Source of the DNA: an uncultured Planctomycetota bacterium
GTDB taxonomy: Bacteria > Planctomycetota > PLA2 > JAEUHO01
NCBI GenBank assembly: GCA_963752285.1
Contig: CAVVXN010000005.1
Coordinates: 448,001 to 512,000, forward strand
Length of the DNA stretch: 64,000 nt
Direction of reading: 5' to 3'
The position numbers were made by a program, and so were the translations under genes. Below the pieces are notes generated by a model, which was given only the letters and a program-made list of their open reading frames with translations, made no database searches and was not told where the DNA came from. This document shows positions 7,202-21,176 of the stretch, piece by piece; position 1 is the first letter of the stretch, and every line of letters begins with the position of its first letter.

Positions 7202-7549
7202 ATGCACCTCGCGGATCAGCGCTGCGAACCGTGTCGCGGTGCCGTGCCGCCGCTCGCGGACGGCGAGGTCCGTCGGCTCCTCGCCGAGCTCGACGGCTGG
7301 ACGGCGCAGGAAGCGCACCACCTCGAGAAGCGGTGGTCCACCGGCGACTTCGCGCGGGCGCTCGACCTCGTGAACCGTTTCGGCGAGGTCGCCGAGGCGG
7401 AGGGCCACCACCCCCTCCTCGCGTTCACGTGGGGCTGGGTCGAAGCCCGGGTCTGGACCCACCGGATCGACGGGCTCACCCGGAGCGACTTCGTGCTCGC
7501 CGCGAAGCTCGACCGGGTCGCCCGGCGCGCCGAGGCGACGCCGGGCTGA
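7202..7549 (+). CDS. phhB: Pterin-4-alpha-carbinolamine dehydratase
   Basis: LA...C.PC.G..PPL, AE.EGHHP, WTH.I.GLT.SDFVLAAKLD. Confidence 0.92.
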   Translation: MHLADQRCEPCRGAVPPLADGEVRRLLAELDGWTAQEAHHLEKRWSTGDFARALDLVNRFGEVAEAEGHHPLLAFTWGWVEARVWTHRIDGLTRSDFVLAAKLDRVARRAEATPG

Positions 7550-7637
7550 GGCGGTCCGGGAAGGGGGAGGCCGGGGCCTCGAGCCCCCAGGTTCCCCGGG
7601 AATTGGCTTGTCGATCGCCGGGTCAGGAATTATGATC

Positions 7638-7654
7638 TTGAGAACGGTTCTCAA
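7638..7654. promoter_or_regulatory. Fur-box-like palindromic operator upstream of the feo operon
   Basis: Perfect 8-1-8 inverted repeat TTGAGAAC-G-GTTCTCAA in an AT-rich patch about 55 nt before feoA. Confidence 0.7.
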
Positions 7655-7708
7655 TATCGTCCGTGACCCCGCGGGCCCGCCCCGCCCGGTCCGCAGCCCC
7701 GAGAGTCG

Positions 7709-7957
7709 ATGAACCCGCCCCGTTCGAACGTCGTCTCGCCGCTCCGCGCCGCCTCCCTCCCCCGGGGGGCCCGAGGCCTCGTCACCGCCGTGGACGGCTC
7801 CGTGGAGACGGTCGAGCGCCTCGCCGCGCTCGGCCTCGTCCCGGGCGCCGCCTTCCGCGTGCTCCGGGGCGGCTCGCCCCTGGCCCTCGCCGTCGGTGAG
7901 GCCCGGTTCGCCCTGGGCCGCGAGTGGGCCGAGGCCCTGGTGGTCTCCCCGCTGTGA
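7709..7957 (+). CDS. feoA: Ferrous iron transport protein A (copy 1)
   Basis: RLAALGL.PG..F.V.R...P......GE.R.ALG FeoA pattern; first gene of the feo operon. Confidence 0.88.
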   Translation: MNPPRSNVVSPLRAASLPRGARGLVTAVDGSVETVERLAALGLVPGAAFRVLRGGSPLALAVGEARFALGREWAEALVVSPL

Positions 7958-8211
7958 CGGCGCCGCCCGGCGGGGCGGGGCGGACGCTCGCGGACCTCCC
8001 CGTGGGCGGGCACGGGCGGATCCGGTCGATCGACGCGCCCGCGGCGCTCCGCCAACGCCTGCTCGAGATGGGTCTCGTCGAAGGCACGCCGGTCGAGGTG
8101 GTGCGGTTCGCGCCCCTCGGCGACCCGATGGAGATCCGCGTGCGCGGCTACCACCTGAGCCTCCGGCGCGCCGACGCGCGCGGCGTGACCGTCTCGGAGG
8201 ACGACGCGTGA
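7954..8211 (+). CDS. feoA: Ferrous iron transport protein A (copy 2)
   Basis: RQRLLEMGL.EGT.VEVVRFAPLGDPMEIRVRGYHLSLRR; GTGA overlap with copy 1. Confidence 0.93.
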   Translation: MTAPPGGAGRTLADLPVGGHGRIRSIDAPAALRQRLLEMGLVEGTPVEVVRFAPLGDPMEIRVRGYHLSLRRADARGVTVSEDDA

Positions 8212-10592
8212 GCCCGGCCTTCGCCCGCGAGCCCGTCGTCCTGCCCGTCGTCCGGGCCGAGCGGTGGGTGGCCCTGATCGGGAACCCGAACACGGGGAAG
8301 ACCACGCTCTTCAACGCGCTGACGGGTGGCCGCGCGCGCACGGGTAACTACCCCGGCGTCACCGTGGACAAGCGGATGGGCACGCTCCGCGGCGCGGACG
8401 GACACGTCGTGCGCGTGCTCGACCTGCCCGGCACGTACAGCCTCGCTGCGCGCTCGCCCGACGAGATGGTCGCGGTGGACGTGCTGCTCGGTCGTCTCGC
8501 CGACACGCCCCGCCCGGGCGCGGTGGCGGTCGTGGTCGATGCCGCGAACCTCGAGCGGAACCTCTACCTCGTGACGCAGGTGATCGAGACCGGCGTTCCG
8601 ACGATCGTCGCCCTCAACATGATGGACGACGCCGCGGCGCGAGGCATGCGGATCGAGCCCGCCGCGCTCTCGGAGCGCCTGGGCGTCCCGGTCGTGCCCA
8701 CCGTCGCCTCGCGCGGCCAGGGCGTGGACGCGCTTTGCGCGGCGCTCGTCGGAGCGCTCGACGCGCCCGCGCCCGCGTCCCGGCTCGACTGGCCCCCGGC
8801 GATCGAGTCCGCCGAACGGGCGCTCGCGCGGTCCATCGCGGATGCCGGGCTCGACGGCGTGACGTCGGTCGAGGTGCGCCGCGCGCTCCTCGACGCGGGC
8901 GGCGAGACCGAGCGTCGCCTCGTCGCCCGGGGTGGACCGCGCGTCGCGCAGTCGATCGCCGCCCACCGCGCGGCGGCCGAGGCCGAGGGCGGTTCGCTCG
9001 CGGCGCTCGAGGCCGCGACGCGCTACGCGTTCATCGCCGGCGTCGTGGAGGGGAGCCTCTCCCGCGAGGCGGCCCCCGCCGTCACCCGGTCGGACCGGAT
9101 CGACACGGTCCTGACGCACCGGATCTGGGGCACGCTCGCGCTCGCGGCCGTGATGACGACCGTCTTCACGTCGATCTTCTCGGGCGCGGCGCCGATCATG
9201 GACTGGATCGACACCGGCGTCTTCAAGCCGCTGCAGCAGGCCGTGGCCGGTTGGGCCTTCCTCGGCGACGGCGCGGTGAAGAGCCTCGTCGTGGACGGGG
9301 TCATCGGCGGGGTGGGGAGCGTCGCGGTGTTCCTCCCGCAGATCGCGATCCTCTTCGCGTTCATCGCGCTCCTGGAGGGCTGCGGCTACATGGCCCGGGC
9401 CGCGTTCCTGATGGACCGGCTGCTGCGCGGGTGCGGGCTCTCGGGGCGCTCGTTCATCCCGATGCTGTCCTCGTTCGCGTGCGCGGTCCCGGGAATCATG
9501 TCCGCGCGCACGATCGAGAACCGGCGGGACCGGATCGTCACCGTGCTCGTCGCGCCCCTCATGTCGTGCAGCGCGCGGATCCCCGTGTACGTGCTCATGA
9601 TCGCGGCGTTCGTGCCGCCGATCGCCCTGCTCGGCTTCGTGAACCTGCAGGGCGTGGTCTTCGCGGGGATGTACCTGGTCGGCATCCTGGTCGCGATCCC
9701 GGTCGCCCTCCTCCTCAAGCGCACCGTGCTCCGCGGCGACACGCCCTCGTTCCTCGTCGAGCTCCCGCCGTACCGCATCCCCCGGCCGGGCGTCGTGGTG
9801 GCGCGCGTCGTCGAGCAGGCGTGGGCCTTCCTCGCGCGCGCGGGGACGATCATCTTCGCGGCGAGCATCGTGATCTGGGCGCTGTCCTACTTCCCGCGCC
9901 CCGACGACCCCGAGGCGCCCGTCCGCGCCGCGGTCACGAAGGCCGAGGCCGGCGTGGCGCCGCGGCGCGAGCGTCTCCGGATCGAACGCGCGCGCCAGGA
10001 TCAGGCCGTGACCGCGGCCGAGGCCCAGGGGCCCGCGCTCGGTGTACCGGCGCGCCAGGCCTACACCGCCTTCCTCGCGTACGCGGACGACGAGGAGGCG
10101 AAGCTCCGCGGCGAGGTCGAGTCGGCGCGGGTGGAGGCCGAGCACGACGTCCAGGGCGAGGCGCTCCGCGAGAGCTTCCTCGGCCGGGCCGGCCGCGCGC
10201 TCGAGCCGGTCTTCGCGCCGATGCGGTGGGACTGGAAGGTCGCCGCGGCCGTCGTGGCGTCGTTCCCCGCGCGCGAGGTCGTCGTGAGCACGCTGGGGGT
10301 CATCTACAACCTGGGATCCGACGCGGACGAGGAGAGCGAGGGTCTTCGCGACCGCCTGCGCGCGGCGTCGTGGGACTCGGGACCGCATGCGGGGCAGGCC
10401 GTCTTCGACCTCCCGGGGGCCATCGCGCTCATGGTCTTCTTCGCGCTGTGCGCCCAGTGCGTCTCGACGCTGGTCACGATCCGGAAGGAGACCGGGGCCT
10501 GGCGGTGGGCCGCGTTCTCGTTCGGCTACATGACGATCCTCGCCTGGTGCGCGGCCGCGCTCGTCGCGGTCGGGCTGAGGGCCCTTCTCTGA
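8208..10592 (+). CDS. feoB: Ferrous iron transport protein B
   Basis: GNPNTGKTT, GNYPGVTV, DLPGTYSL, LNMMD G-motifs; membrane domain GYMARAAFLMD, CAVPGIM, MSCSARIPVY, CAQCVST. Confidence 0.97.
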   Translation: MSPAFAREPVVLPVVRAERWVALIGNPNTGKTTLFNALTGGRARTGNYPGVTVDKRMGTLRGADGHVVRVLDLPGTYSLAARSPDEMVAVDVLLGRLADTPRPGAVAVVVDAANLERNLYLVTQVIETGVPTIVALNMMDDAAARGMRIEPAALSERLGVPVVPTVASRGQGVDALCAALVGALDAPAPASRLDWPPAIESAERALARSIADAGLDGVTSVEVRRALLDAGGETERRLVARGGPRVAQSIAAHRAAAEAEGGSLAALEAATRYAFIAGVVEGSLSREAAPAVTRSDRIDTVLTHRIWGTLALAAVMTTVFTSIFSGAAPIMDWIDTGVFKPLQQAVAGWAFLGDGAVKSLVVDGVIGGVGSVAVFLPQIAILFAFIALLEGCGYMARAAFLMDRLLRGCGLSGRSFIPMLSSFACAVPGIMSARTIENRRDRIVTVLVAPLMSCSARIPVYVLMIAAFVPPIALLGFVNLQGVVFAGMYLVGILVAIPVALLLKRTVLRGDTPSFLVELPPYRIPRPGVVVARVVEQAWAFLARAGTIIFAASIVIWALSYFPRPDDPEAPVRAAVTKAEAGVAPRRERLRIERARQDQAVTAAEAQGPALGVPARQAYTAFLAYADDEEAKLRGEVESARVEAEHDVQGEALRESFLGRAGRALEPVFAPMRWDWKVAAAVVASFPAREVVVSTLGVIYNLGSDADEESEGLRDRLRAASWDSGPHAGQAVFDLPGAIALMVFFALCAQCVSTLVTIRKETGAWRWAAFSFGYMTILAWCAAALVAVGLRALL

Positions 10593-10798
10593 TGGACACC
10601 GCCGTCGCCCTCGCGATCGTGCTCGTCGCGCTCGTCTACCTGGGACGGCGTCTCCAACGCGTCCTCGGGGCGGGGGCGGGGGGATGCGGCTGCGGAGCCC
10701 GCGCGGGCACGTGTCCCGCCGCGCGCGAGATGGGTCGCGAGATGGACGCGGCGGCGAAGGCCGCCCTCGGGAGCGGCGGCCCGCGCCGCGCGATCTGA
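10592..10798 (+). CDS. FeoB-associated Cys-rich small membrane protein
   Basis: One TM helix followed by GGCGCG...TCP; start overlaps the feoB stop. Confidence 0.75.
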   Translation: MDTAVALAIVLVALVYLGRRLQRVLGAGAGGCGCGARAGTCPAAREMGREMDAAAKAALGSGGPRRAI

Positions 10799-10899
10799 CC
10801 CCGGACCCGCGGGGGGCGGGGGGTCCCGCGGCGACGGAAGGGAACCGACGCCTGCTATCCTCCGTTACTCCACTCGTGATCCCCCACGGAGGAGGTGCC

Positions 10900-12201
10900 A
10901 TGCGCGCTCTGTCCCGGCCCCGTTCGCTCGCCCTCGTGCTCGCCCTCGCCGGACTCGCGGCGGGGTGCGGGGGAAAGGAAGAGTCGCAGTCGGGCAAGGC
11001 GGCCGCGGCCCCGCCGGGGACCTCTCCCTACGCCGCGTCCCCGTACGCGGAGATCCACGGCGCGGCGTCCTCGGGCCTCGCCCAAGACCTCGTGAAGAAG
11101 GCCGAGACCGCGGTCGGGAAGGGTCGGGAGGCGCTGCTGAAGGCGCAGGATCCATCGGGCGCGTTCGGCGATCCGACGCTCAAGATGCCGCCGAACGTGG
11201 GGTACACCGCCATGGCGGTGGAGGCCGTCATCGCGGCGACCCCGCAGCGCGAGGTGGCCAAGGACGAACACGTCGGCAAGGCGCTCGCGTACCTCGCCAA
11301 GCAGCAGAAGGACGACGGGTCGATCTACGACAACGACCAGTACGTCAACTACATGACCTGCGCGTCGATCGGCGCGTTCTCGATGGCGAAGGTCGCCCAG
11401 TACGCCCAGAACGAGCTGAAGGCCCGCGACTTCGTCGTGAAGAGCCAGATCGGCGGTGACGAGAAGGACATGTCCTACGGCGGGTTCCCGTACGGGGAGG
11501 AGCCCGACGAGCTGCCGGACCTCTCGAACGCGCAGTTCGCGGCGCAGGCGTTCCACGACGCCGAGCTCCCCGCCGACGCCGAGGCGTGGGCGCGGCTCCG
11601 CGTGTACCTCGACCGCGTGCAGAACCGCTCCGAGTCGAACAAGACCGAGGTCGAGGCCAAGGTGGACGACGCGAAGGGCGTGGTGGTCGCGGGCGACGAC
11701 GGCGGGGCGTACTACCGTCCGGGGATGAGCCAGGCCGGGCTCGTGAAGCGCGCCGACGGCACATACGAGCCGCGTTCGTACGGCTCGATGACGTACGCGC
11801 TCGTGAAGTGCTACCTGCTCGCGGGCGTGAACGCGAAGGACCCCAAGGTCCAGGCGGCGATCGGCTGGATCCAGGACCACTTCACGCTCGACCGGAACCC
11901 GGGCTTCGAGAGCGCGAAGGACCCCGAGAAGGCCGGTCAGCAGGGCTGGTACTACTACGTCTTCACGATGGCGCGCGCGCTCACGGCGTACGAGCTGGTG
12001 ACGGGCAAGCCCCTGGAGATCAAGGACGACCAGGGCCAGACCCACAACTGGAGGGCCGAGCTCGTCCAGGCGCTCCTCGACCGCCAGAAGGACGACGGCA
12101 CGTGGGTGAACCCGACGGATCGCTGGGAGGAGAGCTCCCCGACCCTCGCCACGTCCTACGCGCTCGTCTCGCTCGCGGAAGCGCTCGGCCGGTTGCACTA
12201 G
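10900..12201 (+). CDS. Prenyltransferase/squalene-cyclase-repeat lipoprotein
   Basis: GGAGG RBS, lipobox LAAGC, QW-like repeats (LLKAQDPSGAF, YLAKQQKDDGSI, RQKDDGTW), GGFPYG..PDLSN, SYGSMTYA. Confidence 0.85.
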   Translation: MRALSRPRSLALVLALAGLAAGCGGKEESQSGKAAAAPPGTSPYAASPYAEIHGAASSGLAQDLVKKAETAVGKGREALLKAQDPSGAFGDPTLKMPPNVGYTAMAVEAVIAATPQREVAKDEHVGKALAYLAKQQKDDGSIYDNDQYVNYMTCASIGAFSMAKVAQYAQNELKARDFVVKSQIGGDEKDMSYGGFPYGEEPDELPDLSNAQFAAQAFHDAELPADAEAWARLRVYLDRVQNRSESNKTEVEAKVDDAKGVVVAGDDGGAYYRPGMSQAGLVKRADGTYEPRSYGSMTYALVKCYLLAGVNAKDPKVQAAIGWIQDHFTLDRNPGFESAKDPEKAGQQGWYYYVFTMARALTAYELVTGKPLEIKDDQGQTHNWRAELVQALLDRQKDDGTWVNPTDRWEESSPTLATSYALVSLAEALGRLH

Positions 12202-12221
12202 GAGCGGCGAGGAGGCTCCCC

Positions 12222-12929
12222 GTGGCGGACCGTCCCGCCCCGCCCGATCCGGGGCCTTCCTGGCGGGCGGCGGCGGCCCTCGGTCCGCCCGCGCTCCCGG
12301 TCCTCGCGTTCGTCGCCGTGCGGCTCGCGGGCGGCGCGGGCGCGGCCGGCACGTACCGCGCGATGGCCTTCGCGCTCGTGGCGTCGGCCGCGGTGGGGGC
12401 GTTTTGCGCGCGGTCCGCGGCCGTCTCGTCGCTCCGCGCGGTCGTGGTGGCCGCCACGCTCGGCGGAGCCGCGGCCGTCTCGACGACCGAGGTCGCGCGG
12501 GGCCTCGCCGCCGCCTTCCTCGGGGGGAGCGTCGTCCTGTCCGCCTCGGGCCTCTCGGCGCTCGGACGCCGCGTCGGCGCGCCGGGCGTCGCCGCGGGCG
12601 CCGTCGCGGCGTCGGTGCTCTGGGTGGCGATGCTGGGGCTCTACTGGGCCGACCCTCTCTCGGAGCACGTGCCCCTGGCTCTCCGCCGTGGCGTGCGGCA
12701 GGCCGTCCTCTACGTCGATCCGGTGCTCGCCGCGTCGTACGGCGCGGCGGGTCACGACCGTCTGCACGACCCCGACGTCTACTTCGAGGTCCCCCTCGCC
12801 TCGTCGCTCATCCAGGCGCCGGACGCCCGGACGACGGGCCTGACCTGGACCGCCGTGGGCCTCCTCTCGTGGGCCGCGGCGCTCGTGGGACGGCGGCGCG
12901 GTCCGGGGACCGCCCGGCCGGCGCCGTAG
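12222..12929 (+). CDS. Hypothetical multi-pass membrane protein
   Basis: Several hydrophobic helices; fills the gap between co-oriented genes; start inferred at GTG 12222. Confidence 0.6.
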   Translation: MADRPAPPDPGPSWRAAAALGPPALPVLAFVAVRLAGGAGAAGTYRAMAFALVASAAVGAFCARSAAVSSLRAVVVAATLGGAAAVSTTEVARGLAAAFLGGSVVLSASGLSALGRRVGAPGVAAGAVAASVLWVAMLGLYWADPLSEHVPLALRRGVRQAVLYVDPVLAASYGAAGHDRLHDPDVYFEVPLASSLIQAPDARTTGLTWTAVGLLSWAAALVGRRRGPGTARPAP

Positions 12930-12939
12930 CATCGACCCC

Positions 12940-14406
12940 GTGCGCACCGTTCCGGGCTCTCTCGCGGACGCCGAGGTCGTCGTGGTCGGCGCGGGCGGCC
13001 TCGGGTGTCCCGCCGCGTGGGCGCTCGCGGCCGCCGGCGTCGGGCGCGTGACGATCGTAGACCCCGATCGCGTCGAGCCCTCGAACCTCCCGCGCCAGGT
13101 CCTGTTCGGCCCGGACGACGTGGGCCGGCCGAAGGCGCTCGCCGCCGCGCGGCGCCTCGACCCGGACGGCGCGCGCGTGCACGGCGTGGCCGAGCGCCTC
13201 GACGACACGAACGAGATGCGCGTGCTCGCGGGCGCCTCGGTCGTGATCGACGCCACCGACGGCGCGCCCGCGAAGGACTGGCTGAACGCCGTCGCGGTCC
13301 GTCGGGGCCTGCCGCTCGTGCACGCGGCAGCGCTCCGGTCGGAGGGCCGGGTCCTCGAGGTGCCTCCGGGCGGTCGGCCCTGCCTCGCCTGCCTCTTCGG
13401 TCGGCTTCGGGAGGAGGGCGGGGCGTGCGCGGACCTCGGCGTCTGGCCCGGCGTCGTCGGCGCGACGGGCTACCTGGCGGCGGCCGCCGCCGTGCGGCGC
13501 GTGCGGGCGCCCGACGCGCCGTCCCCCGGCTACCTCCTGCTCGACCGCGGCGGCGGTCGCACCGTCGTCCTGACGGCCGCGCCCGACTCCTCGTGTCTGG
13601 TGTGCGCGCGCGGCGAGGCGCCGCCGGAGCCGTACCCGTCCGTCCCCGCCTGCGCCGTGGACCCCCTGGCCGGTACGGCGCCGCTCGACGGAGAGGCGCG
13701 GCTCGACCTTCGCGACGAGTCGTGCCCGTTGAACCTGCTCCGCGCGCGCCGCGCGGTGGAGGACCTGGCGCCCGGCCGCGTCGTCCGGATCGTCCTCGGC
13801 GCCGAGGGCCGGGAGAGCGTGCCGGAGGGCCTGCGTGCGCTCGGGCACCGGCTCGTGGACGTCGAGGCCCGCGCCGACGGACTCGAGCTCGTGGTCGCGC
13901 GCGGTCGGACCGACGCCGGGCCCGGACCCGGCACACGCCTCTCGCGCGACCAGCTCCTCCGCTACGCGCGGCAGGTCGTGCTCCCGGAGGTGGGGGAGGC
14001 CGGGCAGCGCCGCCTGCTCGACGCCGCGGTGGGGCTCTCCGGCTCGGGCCCTCTGCTCGAGGCGGCCGCGGTCCACCTCGCCGCGTCGGGCGTCGGGCGA
14101 CTCGTGATCGATGGGGAGGGCGCGCCGCCGCGGAACGGGTTCCCGTACGGTCGCGGACGGACGGCCGCGGAGGCGCTCGCCGCGTTCCTCTCGCCGCGGT
14201 CCGACGGCCGGGTCGAGGCGGGTCCGCTCCGAGGCGACCTCCTCGTCGTGCGCGCGGACGACGCGGTTCCCGGGACGGAGGGGCTCGACCTCCTCGCGCC
14301 CGGCGCGGGCGCCGACCGGGACGCGCGGCTTCGCGCCCGAGGGGCGCTCCTCGCAGACGGCGCGATGCGCGCCGTCGTCGGCGCGGCGTACGCTGGACGT
14401 CCGTGA
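12940..14406 (+). CDS. ThiF/MoeB-family adenylyltransferase fused to a TusA-like domain and a second degenerate ThiF domain
   Basis: VVGAGGLG, D.D.VEPSNLPRQ, DATD, CLAC/CLVC Zn motifs; LDLRDESCPLN (TusA-like); then LSRDQLLRYARQVVLPEVGEAGQRRL. Confidence 0.88.
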   Translation: MRTVPGSLADAEVVVVGAGGLGCPAAWALAAAGVGRVTIVDPDRVEPSNLPRQVLFGPDDVGRPKALAAARRLDPDGARVHGVAERLDDTNEMRVLAGASVVIDATDGAPAKDWLNAVAVRRGLPLVHAAALRSEGRVLEVPPGGRPCLACLFGRLREEGGACADLGVWPGVVGATGYLAAAAAVRRVRAPDAPSPGYLLLDRGGGRTVVLTAAPDSSCLVCARGEAPPEPYPSVPACAVDPLAGTAPLDGEARLDLRDESCPLNLLRARRAVEDLAPGRVVRIVLGAEGRESVPEGLRALGHRLVDVEARADGLELVVARGRTDAGPGPGTRLSRDQLLRYARQVVLPEVGEAGQRRLLDAAVGLSGSGPLLEAAAVHLAASGVGRLVIDGEGAPPRNGFPYGRGRTAAEALAAFLSPRSDGRVEAGPLRGDLLVVRADDAVPGTEGLDLLAPGAGADRDARLRARGALLADGAMRAVVGAAYAGRP

Positions 14407-15326
14407 GGTCGCTCGCCCCGGTCTACCGCACGCTCGCCGCCATGCACCGCGCGGGGATCCCGTGGCCGCGCGCGGTCCAGAGCGCGACGCTCGACGACGC
14501 GCGCTTCGTGACCGTGCGGCGGGACCTCGAGACCGGCCGGACGCTGTCGGAGGCGCTCGGGGGGATCGTAGACCCGCTCGACCGGGCGCTGATCGAGGCG
14601 GGCGAGAAGGACGGGTCGCTCGATACGACGCTCGACCGCCTCGCCGAGCGACACGAGGACGCGCGCCGGAGGGGCCGCGAGCTCCGCGCGCGACAGGCGT
14701 ACCCCGTGTACCTTGCGCACGTCGCGGCGGTCTTGATGGCGCTGCCCGACGTCATCCAGTCGCACACGCTCGCCGCGGTCGGCTGGGCCGCACTCGTGCT
14801 CGTTCCCGTCTGGACCTGGCTGCTGCTCCAGCGTCGGTTCCTCGGCGCCGAGCGGCGGCCCGCGACGTCGGGCGACCCGCCCGCACCGCCGCCGCTCGTC
14901 GGTCCCCTCCGGTCGCGGGTGGAGGAGGCCGACGCCCGGGCCCTCGAGGCGCTCGGGCGGCTGTACGAAGCGGGCGTCCCCCTCGCCGAGGCGACGCCTC
15001 TCGCGCTCCGGGCCGGGTGGGGCGGGCGCGCCGCGCTCGACCTGGCGACGCTTCGCGACCGGGTCCGGCGTGGCGACGACGTCGCGGGGGCCTTCCGGCA
15101 CCTCCCGCCGGATCTCGCGGGCCGGATCGCCGCCGCCGAGGAGTCGGGCTCGCTCGGCGAGGCGCTGGTCCAGATCGCGGGGGAGCTCGCCTTCGACGCG
15201 GAGGTGCGCCGCAAGAAGCTCCATCAGCTCCTGCCCCTCGTCCTGATGCTCCTCGTCGGAGGGATCATCGCGGCCCGGCTGTTCACCTTCTACGCGCAGT
15301 ACTACAGCCAGCTCTCGGGCCTCTGA
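14403..15326 (+). CDS. Type II secretion system F / PilC-family platform protein
   Basis: Two repeats of L...AG.P...A / G..LS.AL / AGE..GSL...L.RLA and YP before a TM segment; GTGA overlap with the ThiF gene. Confidence 0.85.
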   Translation: MRSLAPVYRTLAAMHRAGIPWPRAVQSATLDDARFVTVRRDLETGRTLSEALGGIVDPLDRALIEAGEKDGSLDTTLDRLAERHEDARRRGRELRARQAYPVYLAHVAAVLMALPDVIQSHTLAAVGWAALVLVPVWTWLLLQRRFLGAERRPATSGDPPAPPPLVGPLRSRVEEADARALEALGRLYEAGVPLAEATPLALRAGWGGRAALDLATLRDRVRRGDDVAGAFRHLPPDLAGRIAAAEESGSLGEALVQIAGELAFDAEVRRKKLHQLLPLVLMLLVGGIIAARLFTFYAQYYSQLSGL

Positions 15327-15434: not shown

Positions 15435-16601
15435 ATGGAGCAGGAACAGATCATCCAGTGTCCGACCTGCGGGAAGAAGTACCGGTTGAAGGGAGCCCCG
15501 CCTCCGACCTTCACGTGCCGCGGCTGCCAGACCGTGATGGACCTCTCCGGGTTCCAGGCCGCGGCGGCGCCCGCGCCCGGCCCCGTCGAGACCGCGCGAC
15601 GCGGCGCCTCGCCGCCGCGTGGGGGCGGCGGGGGCGCGCCGAGCTCGCGTCACCGGCCCGGTCATCGCGCGGGCGCGTCGTCCCGGCGTAGCCGTCGAGG
15701 CGAGCCCGCGGCGGACGCGGGCGAGGACGAGGGTCGGCCCCGGTACTCCGGTCGCGAGAAGAAGCCGAACACGGCGCTCCTGATCGGTTCGGTCGCGGGC
15801 GTCGTCGTCGCGGGCCTCGCGCTGTTCCTCTTCATGACCGGCGGGGACAAGCCGGACGCGAAGAAGGATGCAGCGAAGAACGTGGCGCCGGTGAGCGCCA
15901 CGCCTCCGGAGACGACGAACACAGGGCCCGAGACGCCGACCACGGGGCCGGCTACGACGGACGCCACGGAGTCGCCGGACAAGCCGAACGATCCGCCGAA
16001 GGAGAAGCCGAAGCCGAAGGACGTCGAGGAGGCGCGGCCCGAGCTCTCGGAAGGCGACTACGCGAGCATCCCGATCCCCGAGGGGAAGACGAAGTACGGG
16101 TGGAACGCGGCGCGCATCCAGACGTACCCCTGGCCCTCGTACGTGACCGGCGAGGAGAAGAACCAGATCGACCAGTGGGTCCACACGCTCGTCTGGGGGA
16201 GCGGCCGGGACGCGGACGAGGCGGGGGACGCGCTCGTGAAGCTCGACGCGTTCCCGAAGAAGGGCGAGGAGTTCAAGGCCGTGGGACGGTTGATCACGGA
16301 GTTCAAGAACGTGCTCGGCCAGGGCAGCGCCAGCGACCCGATGACCCTGGCGCGTCTCCGGGTGATCGACCGCACGCTCCGCCGGATCGACGGCGCGATG
16401 GAGCGTGAGTTCAAGGACATCGACGGCATCAACATCAACTCCTCCGACCGTGACGCCGAACGTCTGATCAAGCGCTGGAACTGGTGGTACGACCTCGAGA
16501 AGTGGCGCCTTCGCCGGCAGCCCTACGATCCGCGAGAGGACATGACGGACTCTCCCGACAGCGGCGGCGACGACGGGGGCCTCGCGCCGCTCGACCATTG
16601 A
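15435..16601 (+). CDS. Hypothetical protein with N-terminal zinc ribbon, one TM helix and an extracytoplasmic helical domain
   Basis: CPTC..KY.L...CRGC zinc ribbon, low-complexity linker, TM LLIGSVAGVVVAGLALFLF, C-terminal WNWWY motif. Confidence 0.8.
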   Translation: MEQEQIIQCPTCGKKYRLKGAPPPTFTCRGCQTVMDLSGFQAAAAPAPGPVETARRGASPPRGGGGGAPSSRHRPGHRAGASSRRSRRGEPAADAGEDEGRPRYSGREKKPNTALLIGSVAGVVVAGLALFLFMTGGDKPDAKKDAAKNVAPVSATPPETTNTGPETPTTGPATTDATESPDKPNDPPKEKPKPKDVEEARPELSEGDYASIPIPEGKTKYGWNAARIQTYPWPSYVTGEEKNQIDQWVHTLVWGSGRDADEAGDALVKLDAFPKKGEEFKAVGRLITEFKNVLGQGSASDPMTLARLRVIDRTLRRIDGAMEREFKDIDGININSSDRDAERLIKRWNWWYDLEKWRLRRQPYDPREDMTDSPDSGGDDGGLAPLDH

Positions 16602-18682
16602 CCCCGACGGAGCCGGGCACGCCGGGGCCGAAGCTCGAGTCGGCGCCGTTTCGGCTGACGACGGCGTTCCGCCTGTCGGACGACCAGTCGCACGCGGTGG
16701 ACGCGCTCGTGCGCGGACTCGCCGCGGAGAAACGGCACCAGGTGCTCCTCGGCGTCACCGGCTCGGGCAAGACGTTCACGATGGCGAACGTGATGGCGCG
16801 CGTCGCCCGCCCCACGCTGGTGCTCGCGCCCAACAAGACGCTCGCCGCGCAGCTCTTCGACGAGTTCCGCGAGCTCTTCCCCGAGAACGCCGTCGAGTAC
16901 TTCGTCTCCTTCTACGACTACTACCAGCCGGAGGCGTACCTCCCCTCGTCCGACCTCTACATCGAGAAGGACGCGAGCATCAACGACCGCATCGACCGGA
17001 TGCGGCACTCCGCGACGCGCGCGGCGCTGACGAGACGGGACGTCGTGGTGGTGGCGAGCGTCTCGTGCATCTACGGCCTCGGCTCCCCCGAGGAGTACCG
17101 TGACTTCCACGTCGAGCTCGAGGAAGGACAGTCGATCGACCGCGACCTCGTGCTCCGGCGCCTCGCGCGGATCCAGTACCACCGCGACGACTTCCAGCTC
17201 GGGCGGGGCGCGTTCCGGGTCCGGGGCGACGTGGTCGAGATCGGGCCGGCCGACCAGGACGACCGGGTCGTGCGCGTCGAGTGGTTCGGCGACGAGATCG
17301 AGCGCATCGAGGAGGTGGACACCCTGACCGGCGAGATCCTCGGGCGTCGTGCGAAGGCCGCCTTCTTCCCGTCCACGCACTACGTGCAGAGCGACGAGGC
17401 CCTCTCCCGCGCCATCGACGGCATCGAGGCCGAGCTCGACGAGCGCGTCGCCGCGTTCAAGGCGAAGGGCCGTCTCCTCGAGGCGGACCGGATCCTGAGA
17501 CGCACCCGGTACGACCTGGAGCTGCTCCGCGAGACGGGCTTCTGCCCCGGCATCGAGAACTACTCGCGCCACCTCGACGGCCGGCGGCCCGGGGAGCCGC
17601 CCGCGACGCTGCTCGACTACTTCCCCGAGGACTTCCTGCTCTTCGTGGACGAGAGCCACGTCGCGATCCCGCAGGTGGGGGGCATGTACTTCGGGGACCG
17701 GCGCCGGAAGGAGAACCTCGTCGAGTACGGCTTCCGGCTGCCCTGCGCCCTGGACAACCGGCCTCTGACCTTCGAGGAGTTCGAGGCGCGGGTGGGTCCG
17801 TCCGTCTACGTGTCGGCGACGCCGGGCGCGTTCGAGCGGGAGGCGGCCGGCGACGCGGTCGTCGAGCAGGTCATCCGCCCCACGGGCCTGGTCGATCCCG
17901 AGGTCGTCCTCCGACCGGCGCGGGGGCAGGTCGAGGACGTGCTCGGCGAGATCCGGGCGCGCGTCGCCGTGGGCGAACGGGTCCTCGTGGCGACCCTGAC
18001 GAAGCGGATGGCCGAGGAGCTGACCGAGCACCTCGGCGAGGTGGGCGTGCGGGCCCGGTACATGCACTCCGACATCACCACCCTCGAGCGCGCCGAGATC
18101 CTCCGGGACCTCCGGCTCGGAGTGTTCGACGTGCTGGTCGGCATCAACCTCCTCCGCGAGGGGCTCGACCTCCCGGAGGTCTCGCTGGTGGCGGTGCTCG
18201 ACGCCGACAAGGAGGGGTTCCTGCGTTCCGAGACCTCGCTGATCCAGGTGTCCGGCCGCGCGGCGCGAAACCTCAGGGGCACGGTGATCCTGTACGCCGA
18301 CCGCGAGACGGAGGCGATCCGTCGGGCGACCTCCGAGATGTCCCGCCGGCGCGAGATCCAGAGGCGGTTCAACGAGGAGCACGGGATCGAGCCGAGGACC
18401 GTGGTCCGCGCGGTCCGGGACACGGTGGGCCAGGTCTACGCCGACCGCGACTACGTGGACGTGAGCGCGCTCGCCGCCGAGCGCGAGGCGCTGCCGAAGA
18501 GCCGTCGCGGCCTCCTCGATCGGCGGACGCAGCTCGAGAAGGAGATGCGCGAGGCGGCGCAGGCGCTCCGCTTCGAGGACGCGGCGCGCCTCCGCGACGA
18601 GATGCGCCGCGTGGAGGCCCTCCTGCTCCGCGGCGCCGAGGCGGTCGAGGAGGAGGCGCCCGCAGAAGAACCCGCCCCGTAG
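16598..18682 (+). CDS. uvrB: Excinuclease ABC subunit B
   Basis: LLGVTGSGKT, YYQPEAY, DESH, GINLLREGLD.PEV, GRAARN, C-terminal FEDAARLRD; TTG start overlapping the upstream stop. Confidence 0.98.
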   Translation: MTPTEPGTPGPKLESAPFRLTTAFRLSDDQSHAVDALVRGLAAEKRHQVLLGVTGSGKTFTMANVMARVARPTLVLAPNKTLAAQLFDEFRELFPENAVEYFVSFYDYYQPEAYLPSSDLYIEKDASINDRIDRMRHSATRAALTRRDVVVVASVSCIYGLGSPEEYRDFHVELEEGQSIDRDLVLRRLARIQYHRDDFQLGRGAFRVRGDVVEIGPADQDDRVVRVEWFGDEIERIEEVDTLTGEILGRRAKAAFFPSTHYVQSDEALSRAIDGIEAELDERVAAFKAKGRLLEADRILRRTRYDLELLRETGFCPGIENYSRHLDGRRPGEPPATLLDYFPEDFLLFVDESHVAIPQVGGMYFGDRRRKENLVEYGFRLPCALDNRPLTFEEFEARVGPSVYVSATPGAFEREAAGDAVVEQVIRPTGLVDPEVVLRPARGQVEDVLGEIRARVAVGERVLVATLTKRMAEELTEHLGEVGVRARYMHSDITTLERAEILRDLRLGVFDVLVGINLLREGLDLPEVSLVAVLDADKEGFLRSETSLIQVSGRAARNLRGTVILYADRETEAIRRATSEMSRRREIQRRFNEEHGIEPRTVVRAVRDTVGQVYADRDYVDVSALAAEREALPKSRRGLLDRRTQLEKEMREAAQALRFEDAARLRDEMRRVEALLLRGAEAVEEEAPAEEPAP

Positions 18683-18742
18683 TCGGAGCGCGGTCCGGCT
18701 CGATTGCGGAGCGCTGGCCCTCGGGTAGGTTCATCCGCCGAC

Positions 18743-20119
18743 GTGGTCTTCAGCACGCCCTTCTTCGTGACCGTGTTCCTGCCGCTCGCACTCGGCGGGT
18801 ACTACCTCGTGGCCCGCTGGCCGCGGGTCCGACGCCTCGTGCTCGCGGGCGCGTCGGTCGTCTTCTACGGCTGGTGGGACCCGCGACTCGTCCCCCTGCT
18901 CGTGGGATCCGTCACCGTGACGTGGCTGGTGGCCCGCGCGTTCGCCCGATCGAAGCGGAGGGCTTGGTTGGCGCTCGGCGTGGCGGCGGGCCTCGGGACG
19001 CTCGCGTTCTTCAAGTACGCGGACTTCCTCGCCTCGAGCGTGCTCGCGCTCCTCGGGCGCGGTCCCTCGCACCTCGACATCGTGCTGCCCCTCGGCATCT
19101 CGTTCTTCACGTTCCAGCAGATCTCCTACCTCGTGGACCTCCGGCGCGGGCAGGCGCCGATCTACGGGTATCTCGACTGGTTCCTCTACGTGACGTACTT
19201 CCCCCAGCTCATCGCGGGGCCGATCGTCCGCCACGACGAGATCATCGACCAGTTCCGGCTCGACCCGCGCCGCGACGAAATGTGGGAGAACCTGGGCCGC
19301 GGCGCGGTCCTGTTCCTGCTCGGCCTCGCGAAGAAGGTGCTGCTGGCGGACCGACTCGCGCGGCTCGTGGACCCCCTCTACGCGGAGGCGCTCGGGGGCG
19401 GGTCGCTCGGGTTCGTGGGGGGCTGGGCGGCCGCGGGCGGCTTCCTCCTCCAGGTGTACTTCGACTTCTCCGGCTACTCCGACATGGCCGTCGGCATGGG
19501 CCGGATGTGCGGCTTCGACATCCCCCTGAACTTCGACGCGCCGCTCCGAGCCGCGTCGCTCACCGACTTCTGGCGTCGCTGGCACATGACGCTCTCCCGG
19601 TTCTTCCGCGACTACCTGTACATCCCGCTCGGAGGCAACCGGAAGGGGCGCCCGCGCCAGGCTGCGAACATCGTGGTGACCATGGTGCTCTGCGGGCTCT
19701 GGCACGGTGCGGGGTGGACGTACGTCGCGTGGGGGGGCACGCAGGGCGTCGGTCTCGCCCTGAACGTCGCGTGGCGGAAGGGGGGACGCTCGCTCGGCCC
19801 TGCGCTCGGCTGGGCGACGACCCTCGGCTACTTCGTGGCGACGATCGTCGTGTTCCGGGCCAGCACGTTCGTCGCGGCGGGGCGCATCCTCGCGTCGATG
19901 GCGGGGGTGTCGGGGCTCGGGGGGATCGACCCGGGGCTCGGGCGCTGGCTCGTCCTCGGCTGGATCCTCGCGCTCCTCGGCCCGACGAGCCAGGAGATCG
20001 CGCTCCAGCGCCTCGCGCCACGGCGCCTGGTGGCTGCCGCCGCGGGCGCGGCGGTCGCGTACCTCGTTCTGCTCCTCGGAGAGGGGTTCCACCCTGAGTT
20101 CATCTACTTCCAGTTCTGA
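18743..20119 (+). CDS. MBOAT-family O-acyltransferase (AlgI/DltB-like)
   Basis: LPLGISFFTFQ, FPQLIAGPIVR, YFDFSGYSDMA, FWRRWHMTLS..FRDYLYIPLGGN, GLWHGA, terminal EFIYFQF. Confidence 0.95.
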   Translation: MVFSTPFFVTVFLPLALGGYYLVARWPRVRRLVLAGASVVFYGWWDPRLVPLLVGSVTVTWLVARAFARSKRRAWLALGVAAGLGTLAFFKYADFLASSVLALLGRGPSHLDIVLPLGISFFTFQQISYLVDLRRGQAPIYGYLDWFLYVTYFPQLIAGPIVRHDEIIDQFRLDPRRDEMWENLGRGAVLFLLGLAKKVLLADRLARLVDPLYAEALGGGSLGFVGGWAAAGGFLLQVYFDFSGYSDMAVGMGRMCGFDIPLNFDAPLRAASLTDFWRRWHMTLSRFFRDYLYIPLGGNRKGRPRQAANIVVTMVLCGLWHGAGWTYVAWGGTQGVGLALNVAWRKGGRSLGPALGWATTLGYFVATIVVFRASTFVAAGRILASMAGVSGLGGIDPGLGRWLVLGWILALLGPTSQEIALQRLAPRRLVAAAAGAAVAYLVLLLGEGFHPEFIYFQF

Positions 20120-21176
20120 TCCCGCGACCCGCGCGGCCTGGCGGCGGTTCTTCCTCGCGCTCGTCGCCACGGCGCTCGGGCTGTGGACCCTCACGTGCCT
20201 GTTCATCGTCGTGATGGACCCGTTCGACGACCTGCCGTTCTCGCCGCGCTTCCAGCGGGCGCCGATCGAGGAGAACCAGCGCTACTCGTTCCCCGGCCTC
20301 GCGCGGAGCCCGCGGTTCGACAGCGCGGTCGTCGGCACGTCCACGTCCCGCCTCCTCCGGCCGGAGCAGCTCGACCGGCTCTTCGGCGCGCGCTTCGTGA
20401 ACCTCGCCATGAACAGCTCCGTCGCGTGGGAGCAGTACCGGATCCTCGGTGTGTTCCTCGACCACCACCCGGCGCCTCGCGTGGTCGTGATGGGGCTCGA
20501 CGACGACCGATGGCTCGCGCCCGGCACGACGCTCCCGCACTCGGTGCCCGAGTACCCCTTCCCGGAGTGGCTCTTCGACGACGATCCCTGGAACGACCTG
20601 CCCCACATGTTCGACACGTGGACGCTCGAGCGGGCGCGGCGGCAGCTGGTCGTCCTCCTGGGGATGCGGCGCCCGACGTACGGCTACGACGGCTACCGCT
20701 CGTTCCTGCCCGACTTCGGGACGTACGACCTCGAGAAGGCGGAGCGCCTCCTCCACGCGACTCCACAGCGGGGGGGAGAGCCGCGCGATCCGCCGATCGA
20801 CCTCTCGGAGGCGGAACGGCGGCGCCTCGTCTATCCTGCCGACGCCCTCCTCGAAAGGATCCTCGCCCGGCTCCCGACCCCGACCGAGCTCGTGCTCTTC
20901 TTCCCGCCCTACCACCATCTGCACCTCCCCGCGGAGGGTTCGCACGCGGCGGCCGTGCTCGAGGAGGGCAAACGCCGCGTCGCCGACCTCGCCCGGGGGC
21001 GACCGCGGACTCGCGTCGTGGACTTCATGATCTCCAGCCCGATCACCGAGCGGGACCAGAACTTCTGGGACCCGGTCCATCCGACCGAGGAGGTCGCGGC
21101 GCGCGTGGACCAGTCGCTCCGGGCGTCACGGGACGCCGCCGTCGGCGACGACGGCTACGTGCGGCGGGTGCCCTGA
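20094..21176 (+). CDS. MBOAT-associated membrane-anchored partner protein (possibly SGNH/DltD-like)
   Basis: Frame is open from CTG 20094 through an N-terminal TM helix; VVGTSTS, FVNLAM, FFPPYH, NFWDPVHP (DxxH) motifs. Confidence 0.75.
   Translation: MSSSTSSSDPATRAAWRRFFLALVATALGLWTLTCLFIVVMDPFDDLPFSPRFQRAPIEENQRYSFPGLARSPRFDSAVVGTSTSRLLRPEQLDRLFGARFVNLAMNSSVAWEQYRILGVFLDHHPAPRVVVMGLDDDRWLAPGTTLPHSVPEYPFPEWLFDDDPWNDLPHMFDTWTLERARRQLVVLLGMRRPTYGYDGYRSFLPDFGTYDLEKAERLLHATPQRGGEPRDPPIDLSEAERRRLVYPADALLERILARLPTPTELVLFFPPYHHLHLPAEGSHAAAVLEEGKRRVADLARGRPRTRVVDFMISSPITERDQNFWDPVHPTEEVAARVDQSLRASRDAAVGDDGYVRRVP

Follow-up and report, generated by a model that had tools for sequence, protein, structure and literature searches.

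Escherichia coli ThiF and MoeB (PDB 1zud, 1zfn and 1jw9) are symmetric homodimers with two active sites, and in both the helix that carries the arginine finger lies on the catalytic domain. The finger, Arg11 in ThiF and Arg14 in MoeB, comes from the neighbouring subunit, and Arg70 and Arg73 are the other, in-cis arginine of the adenosine triphosphate (ATP) site, as described in a 2026 Nucleic Acids Research (NAR) paper (PMC13139853). The subject of this analysis is a gene at positions 12940..14406 of a 64,000-nucleotide stretch of DNA from an uncultured Planctomycetota bacterium (contig CAVVXN010000005.1, positions 448,001 to 512,000), hereafter the window. Its 488-residue product has a ThiF/MoeB-type adenylation core (domain 1), a TusA-like domain and a second, degenerate adenylation domain (domain 2), and it is on this last domain that the finger helix is found. 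We read the protein, with a probability of about 0.68, as the organism's housekeeping MoeB/ThiF-type sulfur-carrier activating enzyme in the form of a single-chain, asymmetric, pseudo-heterodimeric E1; it differs from ThiF and MoeB in the inserted TusA and in a predicted pseudo-heterodimer with one active site.

MoeZ, MOCS3 and Uba4 (PDB 6yub) join a MoeB-like domain to a C-terminal rhodanese, whereas the presumed persulfide domain here is TusA. The MoeB-rhodanese proteins in the tree described below are labelled canonical, an RYxRQ motif preceding their glycine loop. Uba4 and MOCS3 keep an N-terminal RYxRQ helix of their own. In E. coli the IscS and TusA persulfides give sulfur to MoaD-AMP on MoeB while MOCS3 uses its fused rhodanese domain, and TusA and rhodanese share no sequence homology, according to PMC5372717. 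E. coli TusA belongs to the same Pfam family and has the same Cys-Pro, but it is free-standing whereas here it is covalently part of the E1. E1-like genes without rhodanese and beside separate SirA (TusA-like) genes were noted by Iyer et al. 2006 (PMC1779556).

The eukaryotic E1s (Uba1, UBA6 and UBA7; NAE1-UBA3; SAE1-SAE2) place the inactive domain before the active one, whereas here the active domain comes first (residues 1-232, then TusA, then 335-482). They also differ in having a crossover-loop catalytic-cysteine domain and a ubiquitin-fold domain, both absent here (domain 1 is ThiF-sized, with no insertion), and in running a thioester relay where the present protein probably carries out sulfur transfer; no E2-like gene was seen among the compared neighbours of the E1, a search confined to those neighbours and not the whole genome. 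BilD, the E1 of the BilABCD antiviral ubiquitination-like system (PDB 8tyz), likewise pairs an inactive with an active adenylation domain in one bacterial chain, and the preprint of Chambers et al. describes the inactive domain as donating the key arginine, Arg9, and all known bacterial E1-like proteins except BilD as homodimers (PMC10557695). BilD, however, is inactive-then-active with a mobile CYS domain, has an E2 partner and conjugates proteins, whereas the order here is active-TusA-inactive and the setting would be housekeeping sulfur metabolism; the similarity between the two is weak (E 3.2e-5 over 68 residues). The yeast ThiF-like cyclic N6-threonylcarbamoyladenosine (ct6A) dehydratases Tcd1 and Tcd2 similarly split the labour between two ThiF-like chains, Tcd1 supplying the arginine finger to the Tcd2 active site and having itself lost another ATP-binding arginine (PMC13139853), but these are two full-size eukaryotic proteins that act on transfer RNA, with neither a sulfur carrier nor TusA. 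No ThiF/MoeB-TusA fusion, permuted ThiF, active-then-inactive single chain or heteromeric bacterial MoeB was found in the literature covered (open-access full texts, without supplements), and the words 'heterodimer', 'inactive' and 'rhodanese' are absent from a 2025 review of ThiF.

Architecture and motif content of the gene

The features of the gene are given below. Residues called invariant are so in an alignment of 47 of the 85 clusters of the family described in the next section, picked for spread and for longer contigs, and ThiF equivalences were obtained by counting along the phmmer alignment.

12940..14406, + strand: whole gene, 488 residues, GTG start, TGA stop; predicted single-chain E1-like protein with an active adenylation domain, TusA and a degenerate adenylation domain (open reading frame list, Pfam, translation)
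12841..12843, + strand: upstream in-frame TGA, limiting any N-terminal extension to 32 codons (PGPPWASS...SIDP) with no RYxRQ-like motif
12940..13635, + strand: domain 1, residues 1-232, ThiF/MoeB-type adenylation core beginning at strand beta-1, matching E. coli ThiF 26-250
12988..13005, + strand: glycine loop GAGGLG, residues 17-22; G17, G19, G20 and G22 invariant
13060..13098, + strand: DPDRVEPSNLPRQ, residues 41-53; D41, D43, N49, R52 and Q53 invariant; R52 aligned with ThiF Arg70
13249..13260, + strand: DATD, residues 104-107; D104 and D107 invariant; D107 aligned with ThiF position 127
13381..13392, + strand: first CxxC pair of the predicted zinc site, CLAC, residues 148-151 (C148, C151), invariant
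13426..13428, + strand: Cys163 in GACADLGV, invariant, aligned with ThiF position 184, in the crossover loop
13594..13605, + strand: second CxxC pair of the predicted zinc site, CLVC, residues 219-222 (C219, C222), invariant
13636..13692, + strand: linker, residues 233-251, poor model confidence at 238-247
13693..13899, + strand: TusA-like domain, residues 252-320 (Pfam)
13723..13728, + strand: Cys262-Pro263 within LDLRDESCPLN, invariant; putative persulfide-carrying cysteine
13942..14385, + strand: domain 2, residues 335-482: RYARQ helix, then beta1-alphaA-beta2, a middle part that varies, and a C-terminal helix that is conserved (G468, A472, R477)
13960..13974, + strand: RYARQ, residues 341-345; R344 aligned with ThiF Arg11, the arginine finger; A343, R344 and Q345 invariant, R341 at least 90% conserved
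14035..14058, + strand: LSGSGPLL, residues 366-373, degenerate remnant of a glycine loop

The window has a G+C content of about 73%. A preliminary description of this DNA, made from the sequence alone, had named the open reading frame and its motifs, and the translation places every one of them where it had said. The ThiF profile (PF00899) matches in two stretches at 177.2 bits against a cut-off of 28.1 (E 3.8e-52), the better being residues 8-203 on profile positions 18-219 of 238, and TusA (PF01206) matches residues 254-319 at 43 bits against a cut-off of 28.6 (E 4.2e-11). The hidden Markov model (HMM) scan that had been proposed for the two families is thus positive for both, and the TusA-like domain proposed to follow domain 1 is borne out by this match and by its invariant Cys262-Pro263. 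There is no Pfam rhodanese match in the 488-residue protein, and TusA takes the corresponding place. The RYxRQ helix is not N-terminal to the catalytic core, unlike in the ThiF/MoeB family, but stands at 341-345, after TusA; the stop at 12841 that had been held to rule out an upstream copy is real, and the 32 codons downstream of it hold no RYxRQ. In domain 2 the arginine motif is kept, the glycine loop is broken (GSGPLL) and SNLxRQ is absent, all as proposed, and across the family no GxGGxG is conserved anywhere in this domain.

The residues that make up a ThiF-family ATP site (G17, G19, G20, G22, D41, R52, K65, D104 and D107) are all present and invariant. Further invariant positions of domain 1 are D43, N49, P51, Q53, C163 and the two CxxC pairs, C148/C151 and C219/C222, which are predicted to form the structural zinc site; those of the TusA domain are C262 and P263; and those of domain 2 are A343, R344, Q345, V347, G355, Q356 and G384. 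Domain 2 has a hypervariable middle (110-194 residues), which is almost missing in some members. D107 (ThiF Asp127) is presumably catalytic, and for the zinc ligands and the position of ThiF Cys184 we assume the customary roles.

Predicted fold, family and proposed mechanism

Comparison with solved structures by phmmer aligned residues 8-229 with E. coli ThiF 26-250 (E about 1e-30) and, weakly, residues 338-364 with ThiF 5-31, so that the two pieces jointly span the whole ThiF chain and R344, R52, D107 and C163 fall on Arg11, Arg70, 127 and 184. The two adenylation domains also resemble each other, BLASTP giving 34% identity over 112 residues (E 6e-5). An AlphaFold2 model built from the 47-sequence alignment has a mean predicted local distance difference test (pLDDT) score of 88.2 and a predicted template modelling (pTM) score of 0.90, with poor confidence only at 238-247 (pLDDT <50) and 483-488. 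Foldseek ranked ThiF 1zud_3 first (E 2.8e-16, target TM score 0.82, root-mean-square deviation (rmsd) 2.1 Å over 219 columns); alone it gave no two-domain superposition, its Uba1 rows having an rmsd of 16-17 Å. VIA-align was run on Foldseek's 1000 best chains, with an output that gives residue ranges only, and its rows include the following.

ThiF, 1zkm_C: table value 29.2, 2.6 Å, 220 aligned residues (of 243), model residues 3-222
UBA7, 9jtc_A: table value 27.9, 2.9 Å, 334 aligned residues, model residues 7-488
UBA1, 9mc5_A: table value 26.6, 3.5 Å, 338 aligned residues, model residues 11-488
Uba1, 5l6h_A: table value 25.4, 3.5 Å, 344 aligned residues, model residues 3-488
UBA6, 7pvn_B: table value 24.6, 3.3 Å, 338 aligned residues, model residues 3-487

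The single-chain E1s (UBA7, UBA1, UBA6) aligned over 323-350 residues at 2.9-3.9 Å, across model residues 3-488, and ThiF, MoeB, MccB and the catalytic subunits of the heterodimeric E1s (UBA3, SAE2) covered domain 1 only (about 213-225 residues, model 3 to about 232). Since some 110 or more residues past domain 1 fit the same rigid superposition, we read the two domains as having the mutual arrangement of the adenylation domains in an E1, and in the predicted model they form a pseudo-dimer of an active and an inactive adenylation domain. Folded alone from 22 sequences, domain 2 reached a pLDDT of 81 and a pTM of 0.71, and a comparison of this model with 48,161 PDB representatives, in which no Foldseek pre-filter was applied, gave as its 13 best matches only domains of the E1/ThiF superfamily, foremost Uba4, MoeB and inactive E1 subunits. 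The preliminary description had treated domain 2 as degenerate with its arginine motif kept, which stands, but it is better described as a complete, reduced adenylation-type alpha/beta domain than as a mere helix-bearing tail. A circular permutation of a single ThiF domain, under which ThiF 26-250 and 5-31 would both be covered, was also considered and was set aside because domain 2 is such a whole reduced domain and because split and tandem relatives exist.

A protein search in which 8000 candidates were scored returned 780 at E <= 0.001, and among the best 120 of these there were 85 clusters (the window protein first and the next 84; about 314-566 residues) that carry PF00899 and PF01206 together, at E 1.1e-131 to 1.8e-76. 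Below this group came one 300-residue ThiF-only protein and then a drop to 7.5e-38 and ordinary MoeB-type proteins. All source names given within the group are metagenome-assembled genomes (MAGs) of Planctomycetota, Planctomycetes or Planctomycetia. On genome contigs, 27 loci encode a relative, of which L028-L032 were handled apart from L006-L027. The motif [FY]ARQxV[LM] lies downstream of the core at all 22 of the latter and in the same open frame at 21, the remaining one (L022) being cut by the end of its contig; an assembly or frameshift artefact is excluded because 21 independent assemblies share the open frame. At L029 TusA and domain 2 stand in one 249-residue frame.

Twenty-nine genomes of the same GTDB family, the source genome included, were searched with the ThiF profile and 26 have a match, the main one starting at profile position 7-24 and never at 1; in 14 a second, weak downstream match to profile 1 to about 50-85 appears, and just four (G391, G407, G352 and G409) have extra ThiF genes. 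A full-length profile searched against 401 Planctomycetota genomes matched across both domains (E < 1e-150) in 15 of the 17 genomes of this family, the exceptions being G294, where the gene is interrupted by a TGA, and G148, which has no match; in the other 384 there was no span of both domains among the matches listed, the best (1.8e-55) covering domain 1 alone. The fused gene is confined to one Planctomycetota family, and is usually its sole ThiF gene. The G294 copy (G294:C7:33688-34962, - strand) is in separate pieces with an internal TGA and may be a pseudogene, a frameshift or an assembly error.

The preliminary description had explained the complementary loss of motifs by an intramolecular pseudo-heterodimeric E1 and had named three ways in which this could fail. 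In the event the homologues retain domain 2 and its arginine (R344 is invariant in 47/47 aligned proteins and in 22/22 domain-2 sequences), the model keeps the two ThiF domains together with single-chain E1s superposing across both, and the fusion is genuine; the explanation is supported.

The mechanism proposed on this basis is as follows. Domain 1, the catalytic motifs of which are intact and invariant and from which adenylation is therefore inferred, would bind ATP and adenylate the C-terminal glycine of MoaD, and probably that of other ThiS-family carriers too. Domain 2, a degenerate copy of the same fold, would no longer bind ATP and in the model packs on domain 1 like the second subunit of MoeB or ThiF or the inactive domain of Uba1, where R344 would complete the ATP site of domain 1 as Arg11 and Arg14 do across the ThiF and MoeB dimers. 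TusA would replace the rhodanese domain of MoeZ, MOCS3 and Uba4: Cys262, persulfurated by a cysteine desulfurase, would attack the acyl-adenylate to yield the thiocarboxylate of the carrier, and Cys163 might resolve the acyl-disulfide and release the product.

Split, stand-alone and tandem relatives

An arrangement of the same parts in separate genes is found in a sister GTDB family, where four loci were examined, three of them contiguous (L045-L047) and one (L048) with an inserted gene. Each trio consists of a core without RYxRQ (ThiF profile 19-232, E 2.5e-55), a cysteine-free NIL-domain protein of about 80 residues (E 1.1e-12), the gene for which stands at the place of TusA in the fused gene, and an RYARQ protein of about 150 residues with the loop HGNAPL. 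The core is 49% identical to domain 1 of the window protein over 146 residues (E 1e-37) and the RYARQ subunit 49% identical to domain 2 over 53 residues (E 4e-8). The sister family also retains canonical MoeB-like frames of about 390 residues.

L045:3305-3784, + strand: three-gene locus of the sister family
L046:844-2589, - strand: three-gene locus of the sister family
L047:1701-3734, - strand: three-gene locus of the sister family
L048:1879-5603, - strand: three-gene locus of the sister family, the insertion being a 517-residue open frame

A profile of domain 2 searched exhaustively against 1.84 billion representatives returned 11,784 proteins at E <= 0.001, three of them at E <= 1e-30. The best 150 included 133 that were new (P0121-P0253), and these were classified by motif. 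Of the 133, 100 are short (<= 282 residues), with an RYxRQ in the first 25 residues that is followed by neither GxGGxG nor NLxRQ; the other 33 comprise 16 that resemble C-terminal fragments of the fused form, 9 canonical-like, 2 tandem and 6 of other kinds. The stand-alone short proteins that were read (e.g. P0142, P0147, P0151, P0154, P0156, P0163, P0167) have a broken loop (e.g. GGGDAA), often keep two CxxC pairs and match Pfam ThiF at positions 1 to about 50 only; their named sources include Vicinamibacterales and Candidatus Binatia MAGs. P0088 and P0172, the latter from Myxococcota, are tandem proteins in which a degenerate RYxRQ domain is followed by a full core without an RYxRQ of its own, which is the canonical E1 order, and P0178 is also a tandem form in that order. 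In P0095, which lacks TusA, the core is joined to an RYARQ domain by a short linker, about 25 residues in length. In a delta-proteobacterial MAG a core without RYxRQ (L032:3836-4669, + strand) lies 2.7 kb from a paralogue that has RYSRQ but reads GAGAVG, SLTALRRQ and DTAPG (7347-8357, + strand), and the pair may show the division of labour at an early stage. In a Binatia MAG a truncated core (L031:4001-4657, + strand) lies directly 5' of a 92-residue, GG-ended MoaD/ThiS-like gene (4743-5018, + strand).

A quick IQ-TREE tree was made of 55 cores: the window protein and 14 of the 84 other fused proteins, hand-picked, 5 split, 2 tandem and 33 of P0087-P0120 (P0088 excepted), with the Shimodaira-Hasegawa-like approximate likelihood ratio test (SH-aLRT) as the only support and a midpoint root for drawing only. 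The 15 fused cores fall on one side of a branch with support 99, and together with the four split cores of the sister family and P0095 on one side of a branch with support 96. The delta-proteobacterial core falls within the canonical sequences, as do the tandem forms, for which this placement suggests a separate origin. The grouping of the fused cores with bacterial MoeB-like split forms indicates an origin that is independent of the eukaryotic E1s, and it is most likely that the fused gene arose from the three-gene arrangement (core, small protein and RYARQ subunit) that survives in the sister family.

Genome context, competing explanations and significance

The source genome (4.64 Mb, 5 contigs, 89% complete) contains the gene as its sole ThiF-family gene, domain 1 matching profile positions 18-220 and domain 2 positions 1-49 (E 1.5e-4), and also as its only TusA-family match; the single rhodanese match belongs to an unrelated 1101-residue frame elsewhere. 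The GG-ended partners that the preliminary description had suggested looking for are present: a 79-residue MoaD ending in GG immediately upstream of MoaE (L003), a 98-residue ThiS-family protein ending in SGG as a third GG-ended carrier (L005), and a ThiS-ThiG protein. There is one match to MoaC, three to MoeA_N and eleven to the cysteine-desulfurase-type Aminotran_5 family (7 at E <= 7.7e-30). Because MoaD-MoaE, MoaC and MoeA are present, the organism needs a MoeB activity, for which no other candidate gene was found. In the 410-residue ThiS-ThiG protein (L004:703-1935, - strand; contig C5, about 1,433,000-1,434,300) ThiS (Pfam 80-145, ending ...FVGGG) runs in frame into ThiG (156-398); the GG is thus internal and this carrier cannot be adenylated unless cleaved, and the thiazole sulfur supply of the organism may work differently. 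About 2 kb from the third ThiS-family gene there is an IS66-family transposase with Orf2 (TnpB_IS66) (L033:2216-4342, - strand; contig C3, about 18,200-20,300), and the scanned genes flanking that carrier (a carboxypeptidase-regulatory-like domain, BNR repeats, an ABC transporter) gave no hint of a pathway.

The surroundings of the E1 gene are kept in about 15-21 of the 27 loci. Its neighbours in the window are:

10684-12201: prenyltransferase-like toroid protein
12186-12929: membrane protein, with no Pfam match, the gene ending 11 nt before the E1 start
14403-15326: T2SSF protein, the GTG of which overlaps the E1 stop in the window; on the opposite strand in most relatives
15435-16601: zinc-ribbon protein
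16484-18682: UvrB

Several observations count against the reading of the protein as a housekeeping pseudo-heterodimeric E1. None of the 25 NCBIfam families shown reaches its curated cut-off, although ThiF and MoeB models rank first (scores against cut-offs: TIGR02356 for ThiF, 181.1/275.25; for MoeB, NF006444, 180.2/449, TIGR02355, 142/376.55, and NF004281, 173.7/266). Profile-profile comparison of domain 2 with domain 1 by hhalign, from 22-sequence alignments, recovered only 36 columns (beta1-alphaA-beta2, probability 36.6%, E 3.7e-4), so that the full-domain homology of domain 2 rests on fold and not on sequence. In the VIA-align fit the inactive N-terminal E1 domain is overlaid by domain 1 and the active one by domain 2; as the aligner is sequential, the E1 fit speaks for an arrangement through the pseudo-twofold axis and not for the roles of the domains. 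With the genome 89% complete a second ThiF gene could be unassembled, the in-frame ThiS-ThiG fusion puts the adenylation of the ThiS carrier in question, and no sulfur-carrier, MoaE or ThiG gene stands beside the E1 in about 20 syntenic loci. Lastly, MoeB and ThiF are reported not to need the arginine finger for catalysis, and E. coli TcdA lacks it (PMC13139853), so that the conservation of RYARQ may be structural.

This last point leads to an explanation in which domain 2 is a structural stand-in for a lost dimer partner, covering the interface and stabilising domain 1 with a non-catalytic arginine, and the hypervariable middle of domain 2, nearly missing in some members, speaks for it. However, the positions of domain 2 that never vary are concentrated in the RYARQ and G..GQ helices and not in the scaffold, RYxRQ is what the split, stand-alone and tandem degenerate forms alike preserve best, and the domain 1 of every family member has lost exactly the RYxRQ helix, and we consider such a purely structural role improbable. 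Slightly less improbable, yet still unlikely, is an oligomer in which domain 2 docks on the domain 1 of another chain, giving a symmetric homodimer (or something higher) with two composite active sites. Canonical ThiF and MoeB do complete their active sites across subunits (PMC12596934 and PMC13139853), long linkers flank TusA (pLDDT <50 at 238-247) and the split three-gene version indicates that the parts can associate in trans; set against this, the monomer model is confident and compact (pTM 0.90) and shows the pseudo-dimer arrangement of an E1 within a single chain already, and P0095 exists as a fused form with a linker of about 25 residues and no TusA.

An enzyme specialised for one pathway, for instance for the third GG-ended carrier only or for a substrate that is not a carrier, would be in keeping with NCBIfam equivalog scores that all lie below cut-off, with the lack of a neighbouring carrier gene, with the incompleteness of the genome and with the canonical MoeB-like genes of about 390 residues that the sister family keeps beside its split version. 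It is nevertheless very improbable when the gene is the sole ThiF-family match here, and usually so in the 26 related genomes, while MoaD-MoaE, MoaC and MoeA need MoeB activity. The reading as a housekeeping single-chain pseudo-heterodimeric E1 is the one retained.

In a wider and more tentative reading, to which we give somewhat less than even odds, these proteins belong to an unrecognised and fairly widespread bacterial class in which a finger-less MoeB/ThiF core is paired with a degenerate, ATP-blind partner bearing the arginine finger. The transition from homodimer to pseudo-heterodimer seen in eukaryotic E1s would have been replayed independently, and the freed site would dock TusA or NIL. 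On the same tentative footing the stages of this class would be complementary-decay paralogues (the delta-proteobacterial MAG), separate small subunits (the sister family and at least 100 stand-alone clusters), a tandem inactive-active form (Myxococcota) and an active-inactive form without TusA (P0095) or with it (the present gene).

To our knowledge the rise of the asymmetric eukaryotic E1s from symmetric MoeB/ThiF homodimers has usually been reconstructed by inference only. Annotation gives the fused proteins no more than the name 'ThiF family adenylyltransferase' and misses the stand-alone degenerate subunits altogether. The covalent link between MoeB and TusA would be independent genomic (Rosetta-stone) support for TusA as a direct sulfur donor to MoaD, and would make TusA and rhodanese interchangeable modules on E1-like enzymes. 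Because the proteins are small and look soluble, direct experiments on them could show what asymmetry and the arginine finger contribute, and if the reading is true the fused family and its split relatives would be living intermediates within sulfur metabolism.

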